From Verrucomicrobiota bacterium (GTDB lineage: Bacteria; Verrucomicrobiota; Verrucomicrobiia; Limisphaerales; SXTU01): 64,000 bases of DNA. Within the stretch, counting starts at the first letter, position 1; every line of letters starts with the position of its first letter. The translations under genes and the position numbers were made by a program. Shown here in pieces: positions 8,291 through 62,842 of the stretch. The stretch covers positions 2,199-66,198 of the forward strand of contig JBDKJY010000037.1 in NCBI GenBank assembly GCA_039796295.1, in the 5' to 3' direction. The notes beneath the pieces are model-generated. The model worked only from the letters and a program-made list of their open reading frames with translations. It was not told the origin of the DNA and made no database searches.

Positions 8291-9991
8291 TCACTTGCTC
8301 CGGTTGATCTTGAAGCTGGAGACGCTGCCCTTGGCCGGGGTTGCGTTCCATTCCGGCAGGCTGGTCTTAGGCGCGGCGGTGGGGGCCATGAGGGCGAGTT
8401 GCTCCACTTGGTGCATCATGGAGGAGAGGTTCACGTTGGCCTTGGAGAGCTCGAACTGGGCTTTCTTCAACTCGGATTCCAGCCCTTGCAGGCGGGTTTT
8501 GAAGATCACGAGCATGGCGACGCCGAGGAACAGGATCAGGGCCGAGATCAGCATGCTGATGATCGGGACCCAGTTCGCGTCGCTGCCGCCAGCGGCGGGG
8601 GCGGCGAGCGGGGCCGTCAGCTCGCGACCGCGGGGTTCGGCCACCGGCTCGCGTGTCCGCGCCGGCTCGTTGAGGATTCCCCCGGCGTTGGTGTCCGCCG
8701 CACCGCCGGGCGGGAGGCGGAAAAAATCAGGCGTGGACGGAGCGGGGGCGGGTTCCTTCGTCGCCGCCGGCGCGACGGGGGCAGGTGGGGCAGTGAAGGG
8801 CGGAAGGCTCAGTTCCTTGGCGGTGGTGCCGGGTGGGGCGGATTTGGTGAACGCGGGCGGCGGGGGCACCTCCATGGCCTTGCCCGGCGGGGGCAGCGTG
8901 GGGATGGCGGGGAGCGGTTCCCGTTCCCGCAGGGCGCTGGCGGCGTTCAAGCTGGTGGAAGCCTCCGGCGGGGGCGGTGTGAGGGCGGGTTCTTTGCCGG
9001 TGTAGGACAGTGGCACAAAGGTGCCGGGGGTCGGCTTGGTCGGCGTGAACCCGGTGGCCGCGGCGGTCATCGGGGACTTCTCCGGCACTGCCGCCAACGC
9101 GGTCGGGGCGGCGGGCGCGGGACGGCCGCCTTGACCGAGGTGTTGCTTGGCCAGCTCGTGACCCTGTGCGGCTGCTTTTTCAATCCACGCGCGGCCTTCC
9201 GTTTCGTTGCGCTCTGTGCCTTCGCCGACGAGGAGGGCGCGACCGTAATCGAATTGCGCGCCGGGGAAATTCTGGACCGCCGCCTTGCGAATCCACTTCG
9301 TTGCTTCCTTCAAGTCTTGCTCGACGCCTTGGCCCAACTGGTAAAGCCGCCCGAGCAGGAACTGCGCGCGTGCGTCCTCGCCGGGAGGATACGCTGCCCG
9401 GCGCAGCCAGCGGGACGCTTCAACGAGGTCTTTCTCGACGCCGTTGCCGTTGATGTAGGCGAGCCCGACGTTGCACTGCGAACGCGCGTCGTCTTGCTCC
9501 GCTGCTTTGCGGAACCACTCGAAGGCTTTCTTGCTGTCCTTGAGCACGCCTTCGCCTTTCAGGTAGCAGAGGGCGACGTTGTATTGCGCGTCGGGCAAGC
9601 CCTGTTGGGCGGCGAGTTCATACCACTTCACGGCCTCGCGGAGGTCAGCGGTCACGCCCTCCCCTTGGTCGTAGAGCGTGCCCAAGACATATTGCGCCCG
9701 CGCGTCCCGTTGTAGCGCTGCTGCGCGCACCCAGCGGGCGCCTTCGGCCAAGTCCTGCGTGACGCCCTCGCCGCCGAGGTAGGCGTGGCCGAGGAGGCGC
9801 TGGGCGATGACATCCCCGCGCTCCGCCGCCGCGCGGAGTTCCGCGAAGGAGCGGATGGTCGGAGCGCTGGGTGAGAGTGCCGGGGCGGCTACCACCGCAT
9901 GGTTGACTGCGAGCAATAGCGCCGTTGCGAGTGCCAAGGTGAGGTGGACGAGGCCGTTGCCCAGTCGGAGCGGCGTGAGAAATTTGGTCAT
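8291..9991 (-). CDS. Sel1-repeat (TPR-like) protein with Pro-rich linker, one TM helix and C-terminal coiled coil
   Basis: ORF 8291..10045; start moved to ATG 9991 (MTKFLTPL, signal-like). About 7 Sel1 units (A..W..KAA.QG...AQ..LG..Y..G.GV..D). These are followed by a PAP-rich segment, the TM helix WVPIISMLISALILFLGVAMLVIF, and a coiled coil. Confidence 0.85.
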   Translation of the reverse strand: MTKFLTPLRLGNGLVHLTLALATALLLAVNHAVVAAPALSPSAPTIRSFAELRAAAERGDVIAQRLLGHAYLGGEGVTQDLAEGARWVRAAALQRDARAQYVLGTLYDQGEGVTADLREAVKWYELAAQQGLPDAQYNVALCYLKGEGVLKDSKKAFEWFRKAAEQDDARSQCNVGLAYINGNGVEKDLVEASRWLRRAAYPPGEDARAQFLLGRLYQLGQGVEQDLKEATKWIRKAAVQNFPGAQFDYGRALLVGEGTERNETEGRAWIEKAAAQGHELAKQHLGQGGRPAPAAPTALAAVPEKSPMTAAATGFTPTKPTPGTFVPLSYTGKEPALTPPPPEASTSLNAASALREREPLPAIPTLPPPGKAMEVPPPPAFTKSAPPGTTAKELSLPPFTAPPAPVAPAATKEPAPAPSTPDFFRLPPGGAADTNAGGILNEPARTREPVAEPRGRELTAPLAAPAAGGSDANWVPIISMLISALILFLGVAMLVIFKTRLQGLESELKKAQFELSKANVNLSSMMHQVEQLALMAPTAAPKTSLPEWNATPAKGSVSSFKINRSK

Positions 9992-10293
9992 GTTGCGAAG
10001 TCGGCCCGCGTTCACACCAGCCAGTGGGAGAAAACTGCGGGCCAAGCGCGCGCATCGTGAAAGCCGCCCTCCGTAGTGTCAAGGTTGGGCTGCCCTTGGG
10101 CGAGTTCACGGGCGCATCTCCGCTTGGGCTACGGGGGGCGCAACTTGGTGTCCGCACCGTGACAGAGGAAACAGCCTCGCCCGGCGAGGCCCGACCAAGT
10201 TCATGGAATGGCAGAGGAGCGCCTCGCGGTCCACCTGCTTCCAGCGGGGTTCTTTGCGAAAACGGTTTCTGCGCAGGGCAGTCCCCGCGCACG

Positions 10294-11814
10294 TCAGGGC
10301 TGGTTCACCCGTTGGGCCACGAAGGATTGGCCGAGCTGGCCGTAGCGGCTCACGGCGGTGACGGCGATGACTTCGGGCAACGGCCCCGCCGCGCTGCGGA
10401 AGCTGCGGTTCAGCTGGCTGCTGGGGAGGAGTTCGGTCTGCCATGCGTTGGTCCCGCGCATCTGCACGAGCCACCAGCCGGGCGCGCTGCCATCGGGCAT
10501 CACCCACTGGAAGACGGAGACGCTCTTCGCCGCGTCCTGGCCGAAGGCAACTTGGGGGCGCGTGGGAATGGCTTTGTCCAGCCACGGGGAGGCGGGGATG
10601 AGCGCGGGGGTAAGGTTGATTTGGCGGAGGAGTTTGTTGGCGAGGTCGTCGCGGTTTTGGTGCAGGGCCTTGATGCTCCATTGCAGGCTGCCGCTCGCGC
10701 CGGGTTGCGCGCGGGTGAGCTGGAGTTGTTTGATGATTTCGTCCGCACTGCGACCGGGGCCGATGTTGGCGGAGGCGAGGCCGGGCCAGAGGTGGCGCGC
10801 AGCGGAGTTTTGCTCGGCCCACCATTTCAGGAGCACGGGGAAACTCTGCTCCGGCGCGTCAATCGCCCAGTAGAGCTGCGGCGCGAGGTAGTCCATCCAG
10901 CCGGCGCGGAACCACTTGAGGGCGTCGGCGTAAAGCTCCTGCGTGGCGTCCATGCCGCGGATGCCGGGGGGCGTGCCGGGCTTCCAGATGCCGAAGGGGC
11001 TGAGGCCGACTTTCACCCACGGCTTCTCGGCCTTCACGGTGGTGTAGAGGCGCTGGACGAAGCGGTTCACGTTGTCGCGCCGCCAGTCGTCGCGCGCGAG
11101 CGGGCCGCCGGCCTGCTGGTATTTCTTCCAACTGGCGGTGTCCGGGAAATCCATCGGCTTCTTCGCCGCGTCCTTCTCGCGGTAGGGATAGAAGTAGTCG
11201 TCGAGGTGGACGCCATCCACGTCGTAGCGGCGCACGACATCGAGGATGACCCGGAGCGAATGCTCGTGGACGAGCGGCTCGCCGGGGTCGAGCCAGAGCA
11301 GCTTGCCGTAAGCGCGGACCAGCTCGGGCCGGGTCTTGCTGATGTGATTGTGGGCGACGGGGCCCTTCGCCGAGTTGTGCCGGGCGCGGAAGGGATTGAA
11401 CCACGCGTGCAGCTCCAGCCCGCGCCGGTGTGCCTCGGCGACGGCGAAGGCCAGTGGGTCGTAATACGGCTCGGGCGCGCGGCCCATGCTGCCGGTGAGG
11501 TATTCACTCCACGGTTCGAGCTTCGAGGCGTAGAGGGCGTCGCAGCCGGGGCGGACTTGGAGGACGACGGCGTTGAGGTGGAGGGCGCGGGCCTTGTCGA
11601 GCAAGGCGAGGAGCTCGGTCTGCTGCTGCTGCGTGGTCAGGCCGGCCTTCGAGGGCCAGTCGATGTTCCCGACGGAGGCGATCCACGCGCCGCGAAACTC
11701 GCGCGGCAGTGCCGGGGGTGTGAGCGCCGAGGGGATGTAGCTCACGCCCGCGCCGCGAGCGGGGACCGCCACGGTGGCGGCAGCCAAGGCGAGCAAGGTC
11801 TGGCGGCGGTTCAC
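10294..11814 (-). CDS. glycoside hydrolase-like family 10 (GHL10/YngK-like) protein
   Basis: ORF 10294..11910 (TTG). The likely start is GTG 11814, giving a VNRRQTLLALAAA Tat-like signal. FRGAWIASVGNIDWPS and HAWFNPF motifs are typical of PF02638-type proteins. Confidence 0.75.
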   Translation of the reverse strand: MNRRQTLLALAAATVAVPARGAGVSYIPSALTPPALPREFRGAWIASVGNIDWPSKAGLTTQQQQTELLALLDKARALHLNAVVLQVRPGCDALYASKLEPWSEYLTGSMGRAPEPYYDPLAFAVAEAHRRGLELHAWFNPFRARHNSAKGPVAHNHISKTRPELVRAYGKLLWLDPGEPLVHEHSLRVILDVVRRYDVDGVHLDDYFYPYREKDAAKKPMDFPDTASWKKYQQAGGPLARDDWRRDNVNRFVQRLYTTVKAEKPWVKVGLSPFGIWKPGTPPGIRGMDATQELYADALKWFRAGWMDYLAPQLYWAIDAPEQSFPVLLKWWAEQNSAARHLWPGLASANIGPGRSADEIIKQLQLTRAQPGASGSLQWSIKALHQNRDDLANKLLRQINLTPALIPASPWLDKAIPTRPQVAFGQDAAKSVSVFQWVMPDGSAPGWWLVQMRGTNAWQTELLPSSQLNRSFRSAAGPLPEVIAVTAVSRYGQLGQSFVAQRVNQP

Positions 11815-12173
11815 AGCGCGGAGGCTAGCGGGCGGAGCGGAGGGAACCAAGCTGTAACGTGGCGCGCGGGTGTGTCGCCGACCAGCCGCAGCCTTCCCGC
11901 CCTCCCGCAATCATCGCTCAACGCAGACTAGCCAGAGGTGAGCACCTGCTGCGACTGGTGCCGCGCGCACAGTCGGCCTCGGTTCCGTTTGCTGTTCGGG
12001 GGCAAGGCTGGCGCTGCGGCCACGGAACCGTGCGTGGCAGGAAACGCTTTGCTTCGGCCACCTCGTTATACAGAATCCGCCACCCGATGAACGACGCCTC
12101 TCCCACCCTCGCTGCCACGCTAGGCGGGGGGGGCTGAACCGCAGCGGCTTCCTCTTTGCCCACCGCCCCACCC

Positions 12174-13214
12174 ATGAGCCACGTCAGCGACTACTTCCAA
12201 ACCCTCGGCCAGACAATGGCCAGCCAGCTCGGCGACCACCCCGAGCCGGACAGTGTCTTCGCGGCCATCGCCACCGATGTGTTAAGCGCGGTGCCTGCGC
12301 CCCCGATTGACGTTCTGGCGATGGCGGACTGGGCCGGGCAACAAGATCCGCTCCCCAAGCAGGTCAACTTCAAGTCTGGCTTCGGTCAGCCGCCGCTGGT
12401 GGTCTTCGTGGCCCCCGGCTTCTACATCGAGGTGCTCTTCTGGTTCCCCAGCCGCACCGGCATCCACGGGCACGGGTTCACGGGCGCGTTCCGGGTGCTG
12501 AACGGTTGCTCGGTCCAGGTCGAATACCGGTTCCTCGAGGAGTCCGCCCCGGAGGAGGGACTGCGGCTCGGTAAGCTGGTCGCGCAGGGGATCGAGATGG
12601 TCGCGCCGGGCAAGGTGTGTTCCATCCTGGGCCGGGATGACTTCATCCACTGCGTCGCGCATCTGGGCAACCCCTCCCTCACGCTGGTGGCCCGCACCTA
12701 CGGCAGCAAGGACCTGCGGCAATTCTCCTTCCATCGGTGCGGCTTTGCCCTCCGGGCGAAATACCAGCAGCAGACCATGGAACGGCAGGCGGCGGTGCTG
12801 GCGGCGGTGTTCAAGGCCCGCCCGGCGGCCTTCAGAGAACGGCTCCTGGCCTATCTCGCCGCCACCGACTGCGCCGCCTGCTATGCCGTCCTGAGTGAAC
12901 TCAAGTCCCTCCTCGCCTTTCCCGTGTTCACCAAGCAGGTGCTGCCCGCCGTCCGGGAGCGCTTCGGGGCCACCCACGCGCCCGCACTGGCGGCCCTCGA
13001 CGAGGACGTTCGCTCCAACGGCATCTGGGGCCTGATCGGTAAGCTCAACGATCCCCGGCAGCAGCTCCAGCACGCCCTCACCGAGCTATTCCCCGACGAG
13101 CGGGAACGCGATGCCCTCATCTGCCAATCCCTCGGCGTGGCGGATGCCCAGCCGGTGTTAGCGGAATGGTTGCGGATCGCCGAACAGTCCTCTGCTCCGC
13201 CGGCCACTGGTTGA
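12174..13214 (+). CDS. hypothetical protein, cupin-like N-terminal half
   Basis: ORF 12156..13214 (TTG); ATG at 12174. GIHGHGFTGAFRVLNGCSVQVEY resembles a metal-binding double-stranded beta-helix motif. The C-terminal half is helical. Convergent with the cyclase gene. Confidence 0.6.
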   Translation: MSHVSDYFQTLGQTMASQLGDHPEPDSVFAAIATDVLSAVPAPPIDVLAMADWAGQQDPLPKQVNFKSGFGQPPLVVFVAPGFYIEVLFWFPSRTGIHGHGFTGAFRVLNGCSVQVEYRFLEESAPEEGLRLGKLVAQGIEMVAPGKVCSILGRDDFIHCVAHLGNPSLTLVARTYGSKDLRQFSFHRCGFALRAKYQQQTMERQAAVLAAVFKARPAAFRERLLAYLAATDCAACYAVLSELKSLLAFPVFTKQVLPAVRERFGATHAPALAALDEDVRSNGIWGLIGKLNDPRQQLQHALTELFPDERERDALICQSLGVADAQPVLAEWLRIAEQSSAPPATG

Positions 13215-13243
13215 GACTCGCCGGGCCGGGGTGCCCCAGCGCG

Positions 13244-15181
13244 CTAGCCTTCCACAGCCTGCTTCCCCGCGCGCCCCTGCTCCTGCTGCCAGAGCGTCAA
13301 CGCGGCCAGTGCGTGGCGCACGGTGAGGGTGGGCGGGTGCTTCAGGGCTTCGCGCAGACGGACCGTGTCCACCCACGGGTTGGGCTGGCACAGGCGCTCA
13401 TGCACCGCCGCCAAGGGCTTCGCCTCCTGCCGCTCCTTCTGCCGCTCCGCCAGCGCCGGGTCCTGCTTCACCGAATCCCACGGGACGGCTGGGGGGAAGA
13501 GCTTGCTCGTCGCATGCCGATACAGCACCCGACCCTGACCCGGCTGGTAATGCAGCTCCGGCGGCACGCCATACACGAACTCCAGCACCCGCCGGTCGGT
13601 CAGCGGGTAGGCATACGTCAGCCCGTGTTCCGCTCCGAAGGCCGCCCACGACTCCATCCGCGCCGTGACATGGCCGTGGTAATAGAGCGCCGCCTGGCAT
13701 CTCCGGCTCCCCGGCACCTCCCGCACGTGCGGCACGTCCGTGCGCAGGTGCGGGCGGATGCGCTCGGCGAACTCCACTCGGATAAACGGCTCGCCCCGCT
13801 TACTGCGCGCCTGCCGATACGCCAGCCGCTCCCACAGCGCGGCCGGCAACGTGGGCAGCACCGCACTATCCCAGAACGCCCGCAGCGCCACCAACGCCAG
13901 CCCCGGGCGACGCCACGCGCGCCCCAGCCCCAGATACCCCGCCAGCGCCCCCCACTCTCCGCGCACCAGATAATCCGCCGCCAACCCCCGCCCATTGTAG
14001 CTCACCCCTTCATCCCCGCCCCAACCCGACAGCATCAGCCCGACCCCTTGCGCCGCCGCGCGCACTTGCACCGACCGCTCCAGCCCCATCGTCAGCGCCG
14101 GCCGCAGGGAGATGTCCAGCTCCGCCATCCAGCGCTCATCGTCATCGGTGGCCTCCGTGTAGAGCGGCGTCAACCCCTCCTGCTGGCAGATGGCCACAAT
14201 GCGCCGGTGCTCCGTCTCCTCTGGCTTGGACCCCGGCGGTGGGGACCAGGAGAACATCGTGGGCACCGCCGCCCCGCGCTGCCGCTGGAGCCGCGCCGCC
14301 AGCACCGCCACCGACGATGAATCCAGCCCCCCGCTGAGGTGAGCCCCCACCGGCAGCCGCGTCCGCAAGCAATCCCCTACCGCCCGCTCCACCAGCGCGT
14401 AAAGCTGCTCCACATAGTCGGCGTGCCGCGCCAGCCGCACATCCGGCAGCCGCTCGGGGAACCAATACCGCGCCACCCGCAACCCCCGGTCATCCACCGT
14501 CAGCGTGTGGCCGAATGGCAGCTTGCGCACGCCCCGGTAGTAGGTGCGGACATTGTCATGCGCCCCCGGAGACAGGTTCAACAGCAGCCACCCCACCTCC
14601 ACCTCATCCAGCTCCCGCCGCACCCCGGGGATGGCGAGCAAGGCCGGCAAGTCCGTGGCGAAGGCGAACTCCCGCTCCGTGTGCCAGTAGAACAGTGGGC
14701 GTGCTCCGATGTGATCCCGCGCGAGGAACAGCCGCCGCGCCCCCGCATCCCAGACGGCGAAGGCGTAATCCCCCACCAGATGCTCCGTGCAGCCCTCCCC
14801 CCACCGCTCCCACGCCCGCAGCAACAGCGCCTCATCCGACACCATCGCGCGTTCCGCCGACGGCACGTCCAGCGCGGCGCACAGCTCCGGCCGTCCATCC
14901 AGCCGCGCATCCGCCACGACGGTCAAGGGTCCACGGGTGAGGATGGCAGTTTCCGGTAGGGCCGCGCTGTGCGCGGTCTTGTCTTCCTCCGGCCGTCCAC
15001 AGGACGGCCCTACCGCCTCCGGCGTGAAGTGCTGCACCTGGCAGCCGAGGGCGATGGGACCGCTGCTCCACAGGCCACGCGCATCCCGGCCATACTGCTC
15101 CATCAGGGACAGGGCAGGGGAGAGGGCCGCTGGGGAGACCGGCGCACCGTCCAGCCGGAACAGCCCGGCAATGGCACTCAT
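13244..15181 (-). CDS. asparagine synthetase-like lasso peptide cyclase (C protein) candidate
   Basis: 645-aa ORF. ATP-PPase motif HLSGGLDSS is present, but the N-terminus MSAIAG lacks the Cys2 glutaminase nucleophile. Compare the true AsnB at 33962..35878, which starts MCAITG. The start overlaps the PqqD stop (ATGA, 15178-15181). Confidence 0.8.
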   Translation of the reverse strand: MSAIAGLFRLDGAPVSPAALSPALSLMEQYGRDARGLWSSGPIALGCQVQHFTPEAVGPSCGRPEEDKTAHSAALPETAILTRGPLTVVADARLDGRPELCAALDVPSAERAMVSDEALLLRAWERWGEGCTEHLVGDYAFAVWDAGARRLFLARDHIGARPLFYWHTEREFAFATDLPALLAIPGVRRELDEVEVGWLLLNLSPGAHDNVRTYYRGVRKLPFGHTLTVDDRGLRVARYWFPERLPDVRLARHADYVEQLYALVERAVGDCLRTRLPVGAHLSGGLDSSSVAVLAARLQRQRGAAVPTMFSWSPPPGSKPEETEHRRIVAICQQEGLTPLYTEATDDDERWMAELDISLRPALTMGLERSVQVRAAAQGVGLMLSGWGGDEGVSYNGRGLAADYLVRGEWGALAGYLGLGRAWRRPGLALVALRAFWDSAVLPTLPAALWERLAYRQARSKRGEPFIRVEFAERIRPHLRTDVPHVREVPGSRRCQAALYYHGHVTARMESWAAFGAEHGLTYAYPLTDRRVLEFVYGVPPELHYQPGQGRVLYRHATSKLFPPAVPWDSVKQDPALAERQKERQEAKPLAAVHERLCQPNPWVDTVRLREALKHPPTLTVRHALAALTLWQQEQGRAGKQAVEG

Positions 15182-15465
15182 GCCGTCACCGTCTGGATGT
15201 GCAGCAGCTTGTCCGTGTGAAGCTGGGTGAGGAAGGCCAGCACCTCCCGCTCACACACCGCCGGGTCCACCTCGAACTCCGACTGGAGCTGGGTGACCAG
15301 CTCGCTCACCCGACACGGCTGTTCCACCGCCGCCCACACCCGAGTGGCCATGCGGTTCATCTGGTAGTATTCCCCATTCTCGATGCTCAGGAGCACGGCC
15401 TGCTCATCCAGCGTGCCGGAGATCAGCTCAGGGGCACGGACCACGGTGGAGGTAGAGAATATCAT
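15178..15465 (-). CDS. PqqD family RiPP recognition element (lasso B1/E-type chaperone)
   Basis: ORF 15178..15600; start moved to ATG 15465, giving 95 aa. Typical PqqD pattern: GTLDEQAVLLSIENGEYYQMNRMATRVWAAVEQPCRVSELVTQL. Translationally coupled to the cyclase. Confidence 0.85.
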   Translation of the reverse strand: MIFSTSTVVRAPELISGTLDEQAVLLSIENGEYYQMNRMATRVWAAVEQPCRVSELVTQLQSEFEVDPAVCEREVLAFLTQLHTDKLLHIQTVTA

Positions 15466-15553
15466 AGCGGCATGCAAAGTAAGGGGCAGCAGGTGAGGGT
15501 CAAGTCGGAACCCGGCCACACAGGCGACGGAGCGCGGGCGGTGGGTAGGGCTT

Positions 15554-15640
15554 GGAGTCCCGGCTTCAGCCGGTGGAGCCGTCCGGTTCACCTGTGCCAC
15601 GCGTGCGCGCTGCCGGCTAAAGCCGGGACTCCAAACGGGG
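15554..15640. repeat. 87-nt structured element, copy 1 (20-bp inverted arms GGAGTCCCGGCTTCAGCCGG / CCGGCTAAAGCCGGGACTCC)
   Basis: Near-identical copy at 17684..17770. The arms are complementary apart from one mismatch. Lies between the precursor A1 stop and the PqqD start. Confidence 0.8.
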
Positions 15641-15698: not shown

Positions 15699-15854
15699 CT
15701 AGGAAGGGGGGGCCGCAGTGCTACGAGAGGTCTCCCTAGTAAAGGAATTTTTTTCCGTCCCCTCGGCAAGGTCGAGGGGCAGTAGCAGCGGCGTCTCCCA
15801 AGGGAGCTTGGCGGCGGGGGCTGGCGGGGCGGGGGATGCTGATTCGGTTTGCAT
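15699..15854 (-). CDS. lasso-type precursor peptide paralog A1 (51 aa, below the ORF-track cutoff)
   Basis: Hand translation of the minus strand: MQTESASPAPPAPAAKLPWETPLLLPLDLAEGTEKNSFTRETSRSTAAPPS, stop TAG. The leader is shared with three paralogs. Lies immediately upstream of the PqqD and cyclase genes. Confidence 0.7.
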   Translation of the reverse strand: MQTESASPAPPAPAAKLPWETPLLLPLDLAEGTEKNSFTRETSRSTAAPPS

Positions 15855-15863
15855 GGCGGCGGG

Positions 15864-15894
15864 AGAGTAGTGGGGGGGGGCGGAGGGCTGTCAA
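15864..15894 (-). promoter_or_regulatory. sigma70-like promoter candidate for A1 (TTGACA-19 nt-TACTCT, 9 nt to ATG)
   Basis: Minus strand has TTGACA (15894..15889) and TACTCT (15869..15864). The spacer contains a G9/C9 run. The module is conserved upstream of all four precursor ORFs. Confidence 0.45.
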
Positions 15895-16102
15895 CGGGAG
15901 AGGGTGGCCCAAGCGCACCGGAGCGCGGGTAGGGCGCGGTGTCCTCCCCGCGCCGCCGAATGGGGAGTGGCATCCGGTTGGCCCACGGCAAGGGGAGGCC
16001 ACCCCGCCCTACCTGCTCCCGGCTGCGGCCAGGCGCAGCTCAGTATTTTGCACGGCCAGGTGGGGATGGTGAATTCGTTGCTCACAAAACGTCGCGCGTC
16101 TT

Positions 16103-16245
16103 CACCCTCACCCCGGCCCTCTCCCTCCAAGGGAGAGGGAGAGCGCTTTACGCCGGCTCGTGCTTCCGAGCACGCCCTTTCGCCGCAGCGCGGCCTGCGT
16201 GGCTCCCTCTCCCAGCGGGAGAGGGCTGGGGTGAGGGAGAACGGC
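16103..16245. repeat. inverted pair of 'GEGRGEG-type' elements (CTCACCCCGGCCCTCTCCC..GGGAGAGGG)
   Basis: 16103-16145 and 16204-16245 are reverse complements of each other and flank about 60 bp. The same family occurs at 19261-19390, 28207-28333, 37623-37668, 46321-46362, 49150-49190 and 49296-49338. Confidence 0.8.
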
Positions 16246-16380
16246 TCCGAGTGCAGAACCGGGTTGCAGGAAAGTAATATGCGCCCCTGCGGCCCATCCC
16301 TTCATTAAGGCGTTGACAAACCAACCCCGTTTCGATAGAGAAAAACCGTCCACACAATCTGAACCGAACCAATCCAAGCT

Positions 16381-17073
16381 ATGCCCTTCAAATACATCCA
16401 AGTTCCGAACACCAAAGACCCGAACAAATCCTCCACCCGCGCCGCCCTGGGCGACCCCGTAAGCGAAGCCGAGTTCTTCGCCTACATGGCCATCCTCCTC
16501 AGCAAACCGCCTGCCGATTGCGAAGCGGCCTTCAATGCGTTGCTGGATACCTGTGTCCACTTCGCCCGGGATACCCGCGCCACCAGCTACCTGCATGGCC
16601 GCCTGCGTATGCAACCCTCCAGCGGCGGCAGCTTCGAGACCGGCACCACCCCGCACTCCCCCAAGGACATCGGCGCGCGTATGAACCTCAGCCTCGGACC
16701 TGATACCGTCGCCGCCTTCGAGGACGACCTGAGCATCGAGAAGGTGGGCGAGGAAGGGGTGCGCGCCCCGCAGATTGACCGCGTGATAGACAACCGCACC
16801 GGGGACACCGATAAATACACGGCCTCCGATGTGCTGGAGGTGGACGGGGAGCACTTCGAGATCGACCCGACGGACACCGCGCAAGGGGTCTTCCTCACCC
16901 CGGTGGCGAGCGGTTCGGCTGTGCGCATCACCCGTTACCTGAGCGTCACGCCTACCCGCATCGAAGTGCTGCTGCCGGCCGGCCTCACCGGCCAGCAACG
17001 CCTCATGGTGGTGTGCAAGTATGACACCAGCCCCCTGCGCTCCAGCACTTACACCAGCGCCCTCAGCCCGTAG
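16381..17073 (+). CDS. HU-like DNA-binding N-terminal domain plus DUF4469-like Ig-fold C-terminal domain protein
   Basis: 230-aa ORF. The C-terminal pattern IDRVIDNRTGDTDKYTASDVLEVDGEHFEIDPTDTAQGVFL...RIEVLLPAGLTGQQRLMVV resembles Bacteroidetes HU/DUF4469 proteins. On the opposite strand to the surrounding RiPP genes. Confidence 0.5.
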   Translation: MPFKYIQVPNTKDPNKSSTRAALGDPVSEAEFFAYMAILLSKPPADCEAAFNALLDTCVHFARDTRATSYLHGRLRMQPSSGGSFETGTTPHSPKDIGARMNLSLGPDTVAAFEDDLSIEKVGEEGVRAPQIDRVIDNRTGDTDKYTASDVLEVDGEHFEIDPTDTAQGVFLTPVASGSAVRITRYLSVTPTRIEVLLPAGLTGQQRLMVVCKYDTSPLRSSTYTSALSP

Positions 17074-17259
17074 GGTCACCCTCCGCCGGTCTGACCCCCA
17101 CCCTCCGCACCACCGAGGGTCACCCTCGCGACGCCGTAGGGTCACCCTCCGACGAGCTGAGGGTCACCCTCCATGAGTCTGAGGGTCACCCTCGTTACGA
17201 CTGAGGGTCACCCTCGTGACGGCTGAGGGTCACCCTCCGCGCGGCTGAGGATGACCCTT
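17071..17259. repeat. tandem array: 9 units at an exact 22-bp period of the 13-bp palindrome GAGGGTCACCCTC
   Basis: Units start at 17071, 17093, 17115, 17137, 17159, 17181, 17203, 17225 and 17247. Five are perfect GAGGGTCACCCTC, two are TAGGGTCACCCTC, and two are degenerate. Spacers are variable 7-mers followed by CT. Confidence 0.95.
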
Positions 17260-17423
17260 GGGGCAGCGCAGGGCTACGTTTGGAATGCACGTGGGGTGCG
17301 GGGCCATCGCCGCACCGCCTTGGTCTGGTGGAATTCAAGTGGCAGACGGCGGGGTGAGGACACCCGCGCTACTGGGAGGTCATTAGGCGAAGGGCCTAGC
17401 CGCCGGTAGGGCAGCGCTTGCGT

Positions 17424-17582
17424 CTATGAGGCCGGGCCTGAGCTTCTGGTAAGTTGTTCAACGGCAGTGATTACAGTCTTCTGGGTCTCATCGGCGAGGT
17501 CGAGGGGGAGGAGGAGCGGGGTCTCCCAGGGGAGCTTGGCGGCGGGGGCTTGCGGGGCGGGGGAGGCAGGTGCGGTCTGCAT
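17424..17582 (-). CDS. lasso-type precursor peptide paralog A2 (52 aa)
   Basis: Hand translation: MQTAPASPAPQAPAAKLPWETPLLLPLDLADETQKTVITAVEQLTRSSGPAS, stop TAG. Confidence 0.7.
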   Translation of the reverse strand: MQTAPASPAPQAPAAKLPWETPLLLPLDLADETQKTVITAVEQLTRSSGPAS

Positions 17583-17591
17583 GGCGGCGGG

Positions 17592-17619
17592 AGGGTAGCT
17601 GGGGTTGGCGAGCTGTCAA
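17592..17619 (-). promoter_or_regulatory. sigma70-like promoter candidate for A2 (TTGACA-16 nt-TACCCT, 9 nt to ATG)
   Basis: Minus strand has TTGACA (17619..17614) and TACCCT (17597..17592). Same module as the other three copies, but with no poly-G run in the spacer. Confidence 0.45.
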
Positions 17620-17683
17620 CGGAGGAGGCAGGCCCAAGCGGTGCGGAGCGCAGACGCCTCCATCCGCAGGCGGGTTGTGGCTG

Positions 17684-17770
17684 GGAGTCCCGGCTTCAGC
17701 CGGTGGAGCCGTCCGATTCACCTATGCCACTCGTGCGCGCTACCGGCTAAAGCCGGGACTCCAAACGGGG
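17684..17770. repeat. 87-nt structured element, copy 2
   Basis: More than 90 percent identical by eye to 15554..15640. Lies between the precursor A3 stop and the A2 promoter module. Confidence 0.8.
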
Positions 17771-17938
17771 CGACGGCGGGTTGCGTTCTCCCTCACCGCC
17801 TACCGACTCAGATGCTGGGGGACTGCGTCCCGCAGGGGCTCCGATGGGGGGAGTCGTAACCTAGGCAAGTCCGACCGTTGCTACGGGTCGCAGACCGGCG
17901 CTGCAAGCGCAGCGTTCAGTGCACCGGCGGCGGGCGGC

Positions 17939-18097
17939 CTACGAGACGGGGCCAAAGGCGGTTCCGATTTCGGTGCTTTGAGGGACGGGCCCGGAATTTG
18001 TCCCGGCGGGGACATCCAGGGGTGTGCAGAGCGGGGTCTCCCACGGGAGCTTGGCGGCGGGGGCTGTCGGGGCGGGGGAGGCAGGTGCGGTTTGCAT
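17939..18097 (-). CDS. lasso-type precursor peptide paralog A3 (52 aa)
   Basis: Hand translation: MQTAPASPAPTAPAAKLPWETPLCTPLDVPAGTNSGPVPQSTEIGTAFGPVS, stop TAG. Confidence 0.7.
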   Translation of the reverse strand: MQTAPASPAPTAPAAKLPWETPLCTPLDVPAGTNSGPVPQSTEIGTAFGPVS

Positions 18098-18106
18098 GGC
18101 GGCGGG

Positions 18107-18134
18107 AGAGTAGCTGGGGGGGGCGGGCTGTCAA
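18107..18134 (-). promoter_or_regulatory. sigma70-like promoter candidate for A3 (TTGACA-16 nt-TACTCT, 9 nt to ATG)
   Basis: TTGACA (18134..18129) overlaps the oxygenase stop codon (18131-18133). The spacer holds a G8/C8 run. Confidence 0.45.
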
Positions 18135-18787
18135 TTGATCGGAGCGCGGGCGTGGGGAGGGCGCTGCGGCTTGACCTTGTCCGCCTTGAGGTGGGCATAG
18201 GGGCCGTCCGCCCGGACGTAGTGCAGGAAGGTCTGGATCATCTCGGTGCCGGTGAAGGGCTCACGCCAATGGGGGCGCTCGATGCCCTGGTAGACCAAAC
18301 CATCCCCCGCCGCGAGGTGGGCGGGCACGGCTTCCCCGGTAGGCGTCTCCACATACAAAGGCCAAGGCACCTGCGGATCGGGCTGGAGGGCGAGGGAGAG
18401 GCTGATTTCGCAGGCGGGGCGGTCCGTGTGCCGGGCCAGCACGGCCCCCGGCTCGTAGATGCGCATGAAGGAGTAGGTAGGCAGGAGCCGGTGGCCGGTG
18501 AGCTGCTCAACCTGCGGGAGCAACCGTAGGAGGAGGTCCTCCGTGACGAGGTTCTTGTAGGCGACGGTGGCCGCTGTCACCGCTCCTTCGCCCCGGCGCA
18601 GGAGGTTGTGGGCCTTCATGGTCTTCAAGTCGGCGGCGGCCTTGGCGCAGACGGCGGCGGGCAGCAAGCCACGGGCGATGAGATAGCCGTGGGTGGCGAA
18701 GGCGTGGGCGGTGTCCACCGGAGCGGGAGGGGATGAAGGGGGACTGCTGGTGGGGGTCTGAGGTGCGCGGGGGGGTGGCGGTGGCAT
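18131..18787 (-). CDS. Fe(II)/2-oxoglutarate-dependent oxygenase
   Basis: ORF 18131..19195; start moved to ATG 18787 (MPPPPPRAPQ..), because the upstream part reads through precursor A4 and repeats. The HxD...H triad is visible: ARHTDRP and ERPHWREP. Confidence 0.75.
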   Translation of the reverse strand: MPPPPPRAPQTPTSSPPSSPPAPVDTAHAFATHGYLIARGLLPAAVCAKAAADLKTMKAHNLLRRGEGAVTAATVAYKNLVTEDLLLRLLPQVEQLTGHRLLPTYSFMRIYEPGAVLARHTDRPACEISLSLALQPDPQVPWPLYVETPTGEAVPAHLAAGDGLVYQGIERPHWREPFTGTEMIQTFLHYVRADGPYAHLKADKVKPQRPPHARAPIN

Positions 18788-18891
18788 CGGGCTCACGATG
18801 CAGCGGACTTTCCGCGTGGGAAGGACTAGCGTCAACCGGGAATCCGGACCCCAGACCCGCAGGCTGAAGGGGCGGACACGACCTGCTTGGA

Positions 18892-19047
18892 CTACGAGGC
18901 GGGGCCGGAGCGGGGACCGGATTCCCTGTAGAAGGTAAATGTTTTGTTTGTCTCTTCGGCGGCATCGAGGGTCTGGCAGACGGGCGTCTCCCAAGGGAGC
19001 TTGGCGGCAGGGGCTGGCGGGGCAGGGGAGGCAGGTGCGGTTTGCAT
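18892..19047 (-). CDS. lasso-type precursor peptide paralog A4 (51 aa)
   Basis: Hand translation: MQTAPASPAPPAPAAKLPWETPVCQTLDAAEETNKTFTFYRESGPRSGPAS, stop TAG. Confidence 0.7.
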   Translation of the reverse strand: MQTAPASPAPPAPAAKLPWETPVCQTLDAAEETNKTFTFYRESGPRSGPAS

Positions 19048-19056
19048 GACGGCGGG

Positions 19057-19084
19057 AGAGTAGCTGGGGGGGGCGGGCTGTCAA
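19057..19084 (-). promoter_or_regulatory. sigma70-like promoter candidate for A4 (TTGACA-16 nt-TACTCT, 9 nt to ATG)
   Basis: TTGACA (19084..19079) and TACTCT (19062..19057). G8/C8 run in the spacer. Confidence 0.45.
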
Positions 19085-19151
19085 CGGAGGAGGCAGGCCG
19101 CAAGCCCGGGGATGAGCCTGCGGGCGGCGAGCGGTTCCCCTAGCCATGAAC

Positions 19152-19218
19152 CGGAGCGCCGAGCATTGCTCGGCAGGAGCGGATGAACGCTCCAAAGCCG
19201 AGCGATGCTCGGCGCTCC
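19152..19218. repeat. REP doublet (GGAGCGCCGAGCATTGCTCGGC ... GCCGAGCGATGCTCGGCGCTCC)
   Basis: Same 22-nt REP family, in inverted pairs, as the copies flanking the RAYT gene at 62.6-63.6 kb. Confidence 0.85.
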
Positions 19219-19260: not shown

Positions 19261-19390
19261 GGATTCTCTCCCAGCGGGAGAGGGACAGGGTGAGGGAGAA
19301 CGGCTAGGAGTCGTAGCGGGGAGGGATGTCTCCAGACCTCGCTGCCATTCTCCCTCACCCCAGCCCTCTCCCGCTGGGAGAGGGAGGCAG
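19261..19390. repeat. MITE-like unit bounded by an inverted pair of GEGRGEG-type elements
   Basis: 19264-19305 and 19346-19385 are reverse complements of each other (about 40-bp terminal inverted repeats). Confidence 0.75.
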
Positions 19391-19442
19391 GCAGGCCGCT
19401 TCAGTGTTAGCGAGGCGCTGGGGACACCTGGCCTTGCGTAGC

Positions 19443-20305
19443 TCAGTGCACCGGTTGGCCGGTGGCATCCAGGTAGCCATACTGGCGCATGACGTCGGCG
19501 TGGTCGGCGATGACGCGGGCGGCTTGCTCGGGGGTGAGGGCGTCGCGCCAGGAGCCGATGCTGCCCCGGCGGAAGAAGGCCTTGGCCTTGGGGAGGCGCT
19601 CCCGGAAGCCGCCGGCTTGCTCCTGCCGCTGGAGTTCCTCAAAGCGGCTGAACTCGATGGCCTTGCGGATGCGCTCGGGGTCGTCGGGCAGGCCGAGGAA
19701 GCGCACGGCGGTGGTGAAGGTGGCTTCGGGGGTGAGCTTCATGTCCTCGTAGCGGATGACTTGCACGCGGAGGCCGGGGGCGGTGGCCCAACTGGTGACG
19801 TGGCGGCTCCAGGAGAGGAGGCGCTGGCGGAGCTGGTTCGGCTCGGTGGCATCGCTGACGGCCACGCAGGCGTCGGGCTTGCCCAGCAGCTTGACGGAGC
19901 GCTCGTAGTCGGTGCTGCCGCCATGAGCGGCGTAGGAGACGGCGACGTCCAGGGGGTTACGGATAAAGTAGAGGGCGGCCTCGGTGGCCTCGGGGGGCAG
20001 GAGGGGGCGGCCGTCGGGCAGGAAGGTGTAGGCGTCGTGGCACTTGCAGTAGAGGGTCTCCTTGGCCTGGCGGGCGAGGTGGAGATAGACCTCGGGGCGG
20101 AGGGCGTCGGCCTCGTCGGGGGTCAGCTCGCCGGAGTCGTAGCCGACGGCGTTGTCGAAGGGGGCGCGGGCGCTGGAGATGGGGCCGCCGTCGAGGGCAT
20201 TGATGTCGGCGGGCTGGGGGCATCCCGGAGGAAGTTGGTGAGGAAGGTGCGGAACCAAGTGTTACCGGACTTGGGGTAGGAGGCGAGCCAGACGATGCGC
20301 TTCAT
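19443..20305 (-). pseudogene. sulfotransferase, split by a 1-nt frameshift (pseudogene or homopolymer sequencing error)
   Basis: The PAPS 5'-PSB motif MKRIVWLASYPKSGNTWFRTF (ATG 20305) is in one frame. The rest, including the 3'-PB-like IRNPLDVAVSY, is ORF 19443..20258 in another frame. Reading the G5 run at 20216-20220 as G6 gives a continuous ..FLRDAPQPADINALDGGPI.. Confidence 0.8.
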
Positions 20306-20318
20306 GGCGGGCGATGGC

Positions 20319-21256
20319 TCAGGGGCGGAAGTCGGCTTCGAGGCGGTCCACCAGCTCGGTGAGGCGGAAGGCGCCCTCGGGCCGGGTGACGCGGGTGACG
20401 GTGGCCTGCTGGGCGAGGGCCAGGGCGGCGCGGAAGTGGGCGGGCTTGGCGGCGAGGCCATCCACGAAGTGGAAGCGGTAGGTCTGCTGCTTGAGGGCGT
20501 TGAGGCGCTGGGGGCCTTCGACGGAGGTGAGCTGGAGGTCGGGGTCGTTAGTGGCGCGGAGGAGGTAGAGCTTGCGCACCGGGAGGGGGACGGTGGCGAA
20601 GGCGGTGCCCAGGGGGACGGCGCGCTTCTCCAGCGCGGGCCGGATGCGCTGGAGGCCATCGGGTGCGAGGTCGAATTGCTTGAGGGAGTCCAGCCAGAGC
20701 TTGGCATGGGGGAGGCCGGGGTGGAGGACGAGGCGGCCGGTGGCATCCGGGCGGATGGCACAGACGTCGTCGGTGAGGACGGGGTAGCCGCGGCGCTGGC
20801 AGGCGATGGCGGTGGTGGACTTGCCGACACCGGAGATGCCGAGGAAGGCAACGCAGGTATCACCCGTGGCGATGGCGCTGCCGTGGAGGACGAGGTCACC
20901 GCGTTGGTGGAGGAGGGCGGCGAAGGCGGAGCCGTAGAGGAAGAGGCGGACGTCCTCGGGGTCCGCACCGGGCGGGGACTCGATGACGATGCGCCGGCCG
21001 TCCGCGATGAGGAAGCGGGCGATGCCGTCCACGATGAGGAGGAGCTGGCCGGGGGCGGCTTGATAGCGGACGCCACGGTCGGTGGCTCCGGGGAGTTCGG
21101 TGGGGACAGGGCCGGTGAGGATCTCGACGTCGGCGGGGCCATCGGTGGAGGCGGGGGAAGCTCGGGGAGGGGCAGGGTGGAGTGGATGCGCAGGCCGTAG
21201 GCTTGGTGCTGGGGCGGTGGGGGCGGTGGGTTGTCTGTAGTTTCTGGGTCGGCCAT
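20319..21256 (-). pseudogene. HPr kinase-like (HprK-related) peptide kinase, split by a 1-nt frameshift (pseudogene or sequencing error)
   Basis: The N-terminus MADPETTDN..QAYGLRIHSTLPLPELP (ATG 21256) is in one frame. The body, with the P-loop FLGISGVGKSTTA, is in the frame of ORF 20319..21365. Reading the G5 run at 21153-21157 as G6 gives ..LPELPPASTDGPADVEILTG.. Confidence 0.65.
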
Positions 21257-21359
21257 GCGGAGCTACCGTTAGCATGAGGCGGAGGGTGATGTCGAGGGAG
21301 GGGGAGGGCGGGTGAGGATTGGCTGGCCTTGGCGAGGGTGGATTCCCCATGCTGAGGGG

Positions 21360-62659: not shown

Positions 62660-62842
62660 GGAGCGCCGATCATCGCTCGGCATGAGGGCACGAACACCCG
62701 TCGGGCCGAGCAATACTCGGCGCTCCGGGGATGGGGGGGGGGCGTCCGATGGGCGGCGCTCCGGCGGGTGGAGCGCCAAGCATTGCTTGGCCGGAGTGCG
62801 ATGTGCTTCACTTCACCCGTGCCGAGCGATGCTCGGCGCTCC
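62660..62842. repeat. two REP doublets immediately upstream of the RAYT gene
   Basis: REP copies at 62660-62681, 62705-62726, 62770-62791 and 62821-62842, in alternating orientation. The last one ends 1 nt before the RAYT ATG. Confidence 0.9.

Follow-up and report, generated by a model that had tools for sequence, protein, structure and literature searches.

Sigma70-type promoters that give leaderless mRNAs are known from lambda cI, transcribed from PRM, and from many genes of Mycobacterium, Streptomyces and Deinococcus-Thermus. Loci encoding several precursors of peptides made by ribosomes and modified after translation (RiPPs), with a conserved leader and a hypervariable core, include the prochlorosin ProcA genes and the three-precursor caulosegnin lasso cluster, while Bordetella fim and Mycoplasma hyorhinis vlp have phase-variable promoters with homopolymer tracts. 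For Verrucomicrobiota, neither promoter architecture nor the initiation of translation is known to us to have been described, no literature search having been aimed at this. The phase-variable promoters of N. meningitidis porA and opc contain poly-G between -35 and -10 and poly-C, respectively; poly-G tracts are also found in the promoters of tp0126 and tprE/G/J/L of T. pallidum, where tracts of 7-11 vary and modulate transcription (PMC7864442). Among lasso clusters, those of the paeninodin type contain a kinase, and these kinases phosphorylate Ser (PMC8498205). The present analysis concerns a lasso-type cluster of a Verrucomicrobiota bacterium, located in 64,000 nucleotides of contig JBDKJY010000037.1 (assembly GCA_039796295.1; this whole stretch is called the window), in which each of four precursor genes, A1-A4, is preceded by a promoter-like module set close to its start codon.

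Promoter-like modules of the precursor genes

All four modules lie on the minus strand, the coding strand of the lasso-precursor open reading frames (ORFs) A1-A4 (Table 1). They obey one exact pattern, TTGACA-N16-19-TACYCT-CCCGCCGYC-ATG, which has four matches in the window and 0.00 expected from 100 shuffles; TTGACA alone is not enriched (13 observed, 15.9 expected) in this DNA of 65.8% GC. The -35 hexamer matches the consensus at six of six positions in every copy, the -10-like hexamer is TACTCT in A1, A3 and A4 and TACCCT in A2, and the nine nucleotides between the latter and the ATG read CCCGCCGCC in three copies and CCCGCCGTC in A4. An earlier inspection of the DNA by itself (the sequence-only reading) had described TTGACA, a spacer, TAC(T/C)CT, 9 nt and ATG in all four copies, with spacers of 19 nt in A1 and 16 nt in A2, A3 and A4 and with the A3 -35 element overlapping the stop codon of the oxygenase gene, and all of these details were reproduced. 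The overlap is due to the TGA (18131-18133) within the A3 TTGACA, which ends the ORF 18131..19195(-) of the putative oxygenase. An Rfam scan of the region matched no family and a tRNA scan gave no match.

For comparison, all precursors of the ...PWE(T/S)P type were collected together with their upstream DNA, giving 15 class-1 modules, four from the window and 11 from three related assemblies (L002, L003 and L005). This family of precursors is rare: only two relatives came from a protein search of a collection that lacks the window's own precursors, and scans of genome and metagenome collections for leader-coding DNA added two short contigs; the real leader-pattern matches were L003, L005 and L012 only (L012 being the same contig as L002), the other hits being chance matches. 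Usable loci were L002, L003, L005, L001 and L024, the last of which is a relative whose cyclase is 73% identical. L002 holds a syntenic cluster with seven precursors, and the clusters of L002/L012 and L003 show 77-94% protein identity to that of the window. The labels carried by these contigs, 'uncultured Klebsiella sp.' and 'Candidatus Saccharibacteria', are evidently wrong, their clusters being syntenic with the window's.

Across the 15 precursor modules the -35 element is TTGACA in 14 and TTGACT in one, the -10 element conforms to TAYNYT, and T1, A2 and T6 of the -10 are invariant in 18 of 18 modules. The spacer measures 19 nt (nine modules), 16 nt (five) or 15 nt (one) and in no case 17 or 18 nt, and the distance from -10 to ATG is 9 nt (11 modules), 7 nt (three) or 6 nt (one). 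Pairwise identity within the groups with 19-nt and 16-nt spacers amounts to 0.96 and 0.90 for the -35, 0.77 and 0.81 for the -10, and 0.47 and 0.43 for the spacer. Judged by this alignment, the conservation of the hexamers amid a diverged spacer is a phylogenetic footprint on both of them. A scan blind to the precursors, run on both strands for TTGACN-N15-19-TANNNT-N5-10-RTG, gave five hits in the window, at A1-A4 and at the PqqD gene, against 0.09 +/- 0.29 expected. In the relatives all its matches fell at precursor or PqqD genes, and several of these precursors had escaped gene calling.

The same layout is met at enzyme genes of the cluster. The PqqD module, TTGMCM-N16/18-TACNYT-N10-ATG, is kept in four genomes (window, L002, L005 and L024) with unrelated discriminators, L024 keeping the architecture at PqqD only. 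A looser scan detected a weaker module before the oxygenase gene, and a weak one precedes the HprK-like kinase gene. In L002, TTGACA-N18-GAATCT-N7-GTG is found before the conserved N-terminal extension of the oxygenase, and TCGACA-N18-TACCGG-N9-ATG, with identical geometry, before the kinase. Each transcription unit of the cluster seems to have a promoter-like element right before its start codon, and the precursors have the best -35. At the same stringency none of the other window genes has such a layout; TANNNT occurs 5-10 nt upstream of seven candidate window starts against a rough chance estimate of about 13, the true starts being uncertain.

The start codons themselves are supported by the ATG in 15 of 15 precursors, by the N-terminus MQxxPAS common to all 15, and by the in-frame TGA within TTGACA, which in the window excludes longer ORFs. 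That this TGA is in frame with the ORF was also considered as a functional feature and rejected, as the frame relation is lost in modules with other spacings.

With a probability of about 0.68, the four modules are genuine sigma70/sigmaA-type promoters, one per precursor, giving leaderless or near-leaderless mRNA. The sequence-only reading had proposed a promoter-like module for a near-leaderless mRNA at each precursor, and comparison supports it, as 15 precursor modules and four PqqD modules keep the hexamers and the short distance to ATG. Each module would combine a perfect -35 TTGACA with a weak -10 TAYYCT that keeps T1, A2 and T6, and, with just 9 nt separating the -10 from the ATG, the start site of RNA polymerase would fall 0-3 nt ahead of that codon. 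RNA polymerase most often starts 7 nt downstream of the -10 and favours a purine that follows a pyrimidine; a purine at -3 after a pyrimidine is conserved in the modules regardless of the -10-to-ATG distance. Seven nucleotides past the -10, a conserved purine (the G in CCCGCC-G-CC) would be the likeliest start, yielding 5'-GCC-AUG with a 3-nt leader. In relatives with 6 or 7 nt between -10 and ATG, the A of the ATG stands at +7 or +8 counted from the -10, the spacing classical for leaderless mRNAs, and by predicted geometry their mRNAs would be truly leaderless.

Such transcripts, leaderless or nearly so, would be C-rich, unstructured and devoid of a Shine-Dalgarno (SD) sequence, and initiation would be directed by the 5' end rather than by an SD. 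The absence of an SD, also claimed before, stands insofar as CCCGCCGYC contains no purine-rich SD-like motif, but it is not distinctive, SD sequences being rare in the lineage (about three of 19 called genes of L001 and L002). In the predicted transcripts, minimum free energies of the initial 48 nt range from -2.8 to -5.5 kcal/mol (48-mers of the window, -13.4 +/- 4.8), and these predicted 5' ends, C-rich and G-poor, fall within the least-structured 2-6% of window sequence. As modelled, this low structure fits 5'-end-dependent initiation. The RRE-cyclase operon, the oxygenase and the kinase would use the same layout with a poorer -35 (TTGACC, TTGACG and TCGACA, respectively), and the precursors would be transcribed independently of the enzymes and more strongly. 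The difference in -35 quality fits a design in which precursors would be transcribed in excess over enzymes.

Several observations speak against such promoters. The -10-like hexamer agrees with TATAAT at three of six positions (T1, A2 and T6), and a standard sigma70 scan, which requires four, called zero promoters at the modules. The 19-nt spacer, the commonest class in the relatives and that of A1, is far from the optimum of 17 +/- 1 nt, within which the 16-nt spacers of A2-A4 fall. In the window the -10 is 9 nt and not 6-7 nt from the ATG, which means a 3-nt leader at the usual start, and a leader of 3 nt is suboptimal for classical leaderless initiation in E. coli and mycobacteria. The identity of modules within A2-A4 and the L002 paralogues Pa and Pb is explicable by recent duplication or gene conversion alone. 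A terminator scan found no canonical U-tract terminator between the units, so that a read-through polycistronic RNA is possible. Finally, two more distant clusters from Opitutaceae, L025 and L026 (cyclase identity 54-55%), have no PWETP precursors and no such architecture, which makes the arrangement specific to a narrow clade.

The cluster, its cassette and its repeats

Along the minus strand the genes, assigned with Pfam and NCBIfam, are ordered as HprK-like kinase, sulfotransferase, A4, putative oxygenase, A3, A2, DUF4469, A1, PqqD/RRE and Asn-synthase-like cyclase, the DUF4469 gene between A2 and A1 being the sole one on the opposite strand. The cyclase matches the lasso cyclase model NF033535 with E 1e-94, under its curated cutoff, and the PqqD protein the lasso RRE model NF033536 with 79.3 bits (cutoff 80). 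A Verrucomicrobiota metagenome-assembled genome (MAG) encodes a protein with 100% identity to the cyclase, and an exact look-up of the oxygenase protein with two alternative starts returned no record. The A1-A4 precursors share the N-terminus MQT(A/E)(P/S)ASPAP..AAKLPWETP and then diverge, with Ser as the last residue in all four. The ...PWETP|L motif places Thr at -2, the penultimate leader position, in four of four; core position 9 is Glu or Asp in A1, A2 and A4, and at positions 7-9 the A3 core (LCTPLDVPAGT...) lacks both of these residues. Neither Transglut_core3 (the B2 leader peptidase), which may be encoded elsewhere in the genome, nor an ABC exporter was found near the window cluster; L025 and L026 carry Transglut_core3, NTP_transf_5 and an ABC transporter. 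Compared with the intact L002 orthologues, the kinase and the sulfotransferase genes each have a 1-nt deletion at a C5 run, near 21150 (cttcccccgcc) and near 20215 (gatgcccccagcc), and each is split over two frames. Both genes may have decayed to pseudogenes in this strain; the alternative is homopolymer error in the assembly.

A block of ~159 nt is common to the four precursor copies. It begins ~15 nt ahead of the -35, takes in the leader-peptide sequence and ends at the ...PLD motif, after which the core diverges, and in A3 the homology begins exactly at the -35, abutting the oxygenase stop codon. A cassette of promoter and leader-coding sequence would have been duplicated and probably homogenised, the core-peptide parts having diverged. 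An 85-nt near-perfect hairpin with arms GGAGTCCCGGCTTYAGCCGG has only two copies in the window, both inside the cluster, and is conserved in L002 upstream of Pa and Pb. This element, which has no U-tract, is a candidate terminator or insulator, and strong hairpins of this kind may separate some transcription units.

Other repeats accompany the DUF4469 gene, which has its own TTGACA at 16313. Just 3' of it is a tandem array of ~9 units of 22 nt, each consisting of a 13-nt palindrome, GAGGGTCACCCTC, and 9 variable nt. A CRISPR was considered for this array and rejected, the variable parts being too short for spacers; it is possibly a protein-binding array. REP-like inverted repeats (CTCTCCC...GGGAGAGGG...GGTGAGGG) flank the gene and recur upstream of A4, and the gene appears to have been inserted into the array of precursors. 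In the relatives, precursors with MM../ME.. leaders have a second, unrelated but likewise conserved upstream module, GATTCTTTCCGATAYACCTCGCTATSSG...CGTCAGGTTGGRCACCGM-ATG, which contains the palindrome CCGATA-N8-TATCGG and no TTGACA and is absent from the window; it is possibly an operator or a different promoter class.

Table 1. Coordinates of the modules, genes, tracts and repeats. Positions are those of the window unless a relative is named.
Feature	Position (strand)	Details
Cyclase gene	13244-15181 (-)	overlaps end of PqqD/RRE gene
PqqD/RRE gene	15178-15465 (-)	95 aa
PqqD/RRE module	15463..15503 (-)	TTGACC 15498-15503; N16; TACTTT 15476-15481; N10; ATG 15463-15465
85-nt hairpin, copy 1	15552..15634 (-)	between A1 and PqqD promoter; dG -60 kcal/mol, z -5.1
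Precursor A1	15699..15854 (-)	51 aa; MQTESASPAPPAPAAKLPWETP|LLLPLDLAEGTEKNSFTRETSRSTAAPPS
A1 module	15852..15894 (-)	-35 TTGACA 15889-15894; 19-nt spacer 15870-15888; -10-like TACTCT 15864-15869; CCCGCCGCC 15855-15863; ATG 15852-15854
A1 tract	15872-15880	C9 (G9 on + strand); spacer 19
DUF4469 gene	16381-17073 (+)	between A1 and A2
22-nt tandem array	17072-17291	
REP-like inverted repeats	16101-16251, 19266-19399	
Precursor A2	17424..17582 (-)	52 aa
A2 module	17580..17619 (-)	-35 17614-17619; 16-nt spacer; -10-like TACCCT 17592-17597; CCCGCCGCC; ATG 17580-17582
85-nt hairpin, copy 2	17684..17762 (-)	between A3 and A2 promoter; dG -59 kcal/mol, z -6.0
Precursor A3	17939..18097 (-)	52 aa
A3 module	18095..18134 (-)	-35 18129-18134; 16-nt spacer; -10-like TACTCT 18107-18112; ATG 18095-18097
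A3 tract	18116-18123	C8 (G8 on + strand); spacer 16
Putative oxygenase gene	18131-18796 (-)	221 aa; GTG start 18794-18796
Oxygenase module (weaker)	18794..18835 (-)	TTGACG 18830-18835; N17; GAAAGT; N10; GTG 18794-18796
Precursor A4	18892..19047 (-)	51 aa
A4 module	19045..19084 (-)	-35 19079-19084; 16-nt spacer; -10-like TACTCT 19057-19062; CCCGCCGTC; ATG 19045-19047
A4 tract	19066-19073	C8 (G8 on + strand); spacer 16
Sulfotransferase gene	19443-20305 (-)	
HprK-like kinase gene	20123-21256 (-)	ATG 21254-21256
Kinase module (weak)	21254..21295 (-)	TCGACA 21290-21295; N18; TAACGG; N9; ATG 21254-21256
~159-nt block, four copies	15748-15906, 17476-17634, 17991-18149, 18941-19099	
Other G/C runs of at least 8	12126-12133, 62733-62742	G8 and G10
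Tract of Pb (L002)		C8; spacer 16
Tract of Pa (L002)		C7; spacer 15
Tract of L005-750		C8; spacer 19; diverged 19-nt-spacer module
Palindrome CGGGACACGGTCCCG	L002 13825-13850; L003 1395-1422, 1846-1873; L005 1940-1965	
MM../ME..-leader module	L001 ~9935-10000; L002 ~11030-11090, 11465-11526, 12625-12684; L003 ~675-735	

Poly-C tracts and rival explanations

The G8-G9 tracts that the sequence-only reading had placed in the A1, A3 and A4 spacers are present at the positions it gave and are poly-C on the coding strand. Tracts of at least 7 are found in six of the 15 precursor modules (Table 1). The other nine have no run over C5 and keep the same hexamers and spacings, and the tract is therefore not required. 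Where it occurs, the poly-C run is part of the spacer and its length would set that of the spacer (15, 16 or 19 nt); by this means it may tune promoter strength over evolutionary time. The A2 spacer has an interrupted tract, CCAACCCC, at unchanged length, and the A2 module is identical in an independent Logan contig, L021. Pa and Pb are one C apart in otherwise identical spacers, which resembles slippage, although this is one event seen in a MAG consensus. Runs of at least eight G or C are not enriched in the window (five observed against 4.1 +/- 2.0 expected), and the only two outside the modules are both apparently non-coding. Three sequencing runs of the same strain gave independent Logan assemblies, which agree with the window at 100% identity over 12184-15585 and 16219-17713; their contigs end at repeats, outside the C8/C9 tracts.

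From the tracts a slipped-strand route to variable promoter strength had been proposed, and it is weakly supported. According to this explanation, the C7-C9 runs would slip at replication, shift the -35/-10 spacing and switch the precursors on and off independently, giving a population with mixed peptide repertoires. In A1, A3 and A4 the space between the hexamers is exactly where the runs (C9, C8 and C8) are found, C8 recurs in the diverged 19-nt-spacer module of L005, Pa and Pb combine C7 with 15 nt and C8 with 16 nt in the same spacer, and the T. pallidum tracts offer a precedent for variable length and modulated transcription (PMC7864442). Nevertheless, we regard it as improbable. G/C runs are no more frequent than expected, nine of 15 modules manage with identical hexamers and spacing and no tract, the A2 tract is interrupted without a change of length, and the C7/C8 pair of L002 is the sole slippage-like difference. 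Moreover, the three tracts of the window are paralogous and hence not independent observations, the same-strain contigs are identical where they overlap with the tracts lying outside the overlap, and tract lengths in a MAG may hold homopolymer errors, two neighbouring genes having 1-nt deletions at C5 runs. In its strongest form, with an independently slipping poly-C promoter for each precursor and a clonal population that stochastically expresses subsets of the peptides, the proposal is very doubtful. It would amount to vlp/tpr-like bet-hedging for the RiPP repertoire of a free-living verrucomicrobium, with C7, C8 and C9 as switch states, and if true would be far more interesting; at present it has little support.

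That the modules have no promoter function and merely hitch-hike with a recently duplicated or gene-converted cassette is likewise hard to credit. One polycistronic RNA would then arise upstream of the kinase or the sulfotransferase, and the precursors would be translated by SD-independent internal initiation. The near-identity of module and leader-coding sequence among A2-A4, Pa and Pb is in line with this, as are the common orientation of all cluster genes but DUF4469, the lack of canonical terminators between units and the rare use of SD in the lineage anyway. Against it, the hexamers and their geometry persist where spacer, discriminator and upstream flanks have diverged, the non-homologous 5' regions of PqqD, oxygenase and kinase have the same geometry, the architecture has a chance expectation of 0.09 per window, and the opposite-strand DUF4469 gene sits between A2 and A1. 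A third explanation, also unlikely, retains the footprint and assigns it to a regulated or non-housekeeping promoter, or to a protein-binding site. The odd 16/19-nt spacing and the weak -10 would need an activator or a non-standard sigma factor, one candidate for the former being the response regulator of LuxR type found beside the cluster in L001 and L002; in another version, the hexamers would be an operator and not contacts of RNA polymerase. It draws on the two discrete spacer classes of 16 and 19 nt with none of 17 or 18, on a semi-conserved TTG 2 nt upstream of the -10 in modules with 19-nt spacers, on the response-regulator/histidine-kinase pair adjoining the clusters in L001 and L002, and on a conserved palindrome upstream of the relatives' 19-nt-spacer modules. 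The palindrome, CGGGACACGGTCCCG, lies ~12 nt upstream of the -35 and could be an activator site or a hairpin; its absence from the window modules counts against the explanation, as do the match of the hexamers to the sigma70 consensus at the most informative positions (TTGACA; T1, A2 and T6) and the lack, by inspection, of any recognisable extracytoplasmic-function (ECF) or sigma54 pattern. MerR-type, ECF and sigma54 readings of the 19-nt spacer were rejected, inspection having revealed neither a conserved spacer palindrome nor a matching motif.

Significance and comparison with known systems

If the start sites were confirmed, the locus would be a RiPP cluster of autonomous "promoter + leader peptide" cassettes with leaderless or 3-nt-leader mRNAs in Verrucomicrobiota. 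The sigma70-type reading, if true, would also supply a simple search rule for precursor genes that callers miss, several of which the architecture scan recovered, a rationale for the stoichiometry of precursor over enzyme (perfect -35 at the precursors, imperfect at the enzyme genes), and compact natural parts for expression.

Comparison with tract-bearing promoters shows both likeness and difference. The G/C homopolymer lies in the spacer, and the paralogues each have their own tract, a conserved 5' region and a variable product, for which vlp and tpr are the closest analogues. Unlike in those systems, of which length heterogeneity is the defining feature, the tracts here are short (7-9) and missing from most family members, and the product is a RiPP precursor of an environmental bacterium and not a surface antigen of a pathogen. 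The paeninodin-type clusters (PMC8498205) resemble the window cluster in their HprK-like kinase, sulfotransferase, PqqD RRE and Asn-synthase-like cyclase, and the window precursors end in Ser (4/4). In the window, however, the kinase and the sulfotransferase are frameshifted, no B2 peptidase or transporter is adjacent, and the core starts with Leu or Val.

As in other multi-precursor RiPP loci, near-identical leaders and divergent cores are served by one enzyme set, whereas here each precursor has its own promoter-like module within a duplicated cassette and a tailoring gene and hairpins lie among the precursors, which are not packed in one operon. With the promoters of leaderless mRNAs the modules share TAnnnT a few nucleotides upstream of the ATG, no SD, a 5' end predicted to be unstructured and a strictly kept ATG. 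They differ in that the window distance from -10 to ATG is 9-10 nt against the canonical 6-7, which is found only in some relatives, in that the layout occurs at cluster genes and not at other window genes at the same stringency, and in that the transcription start is a predicted one. Taken together, the module layout looks like a fairly ordinary gene-expression arrangement, in which sigma70-type leaderless promoters are joined to a multi-precursor RiPP organisation and a kinase-type lasso cluster.

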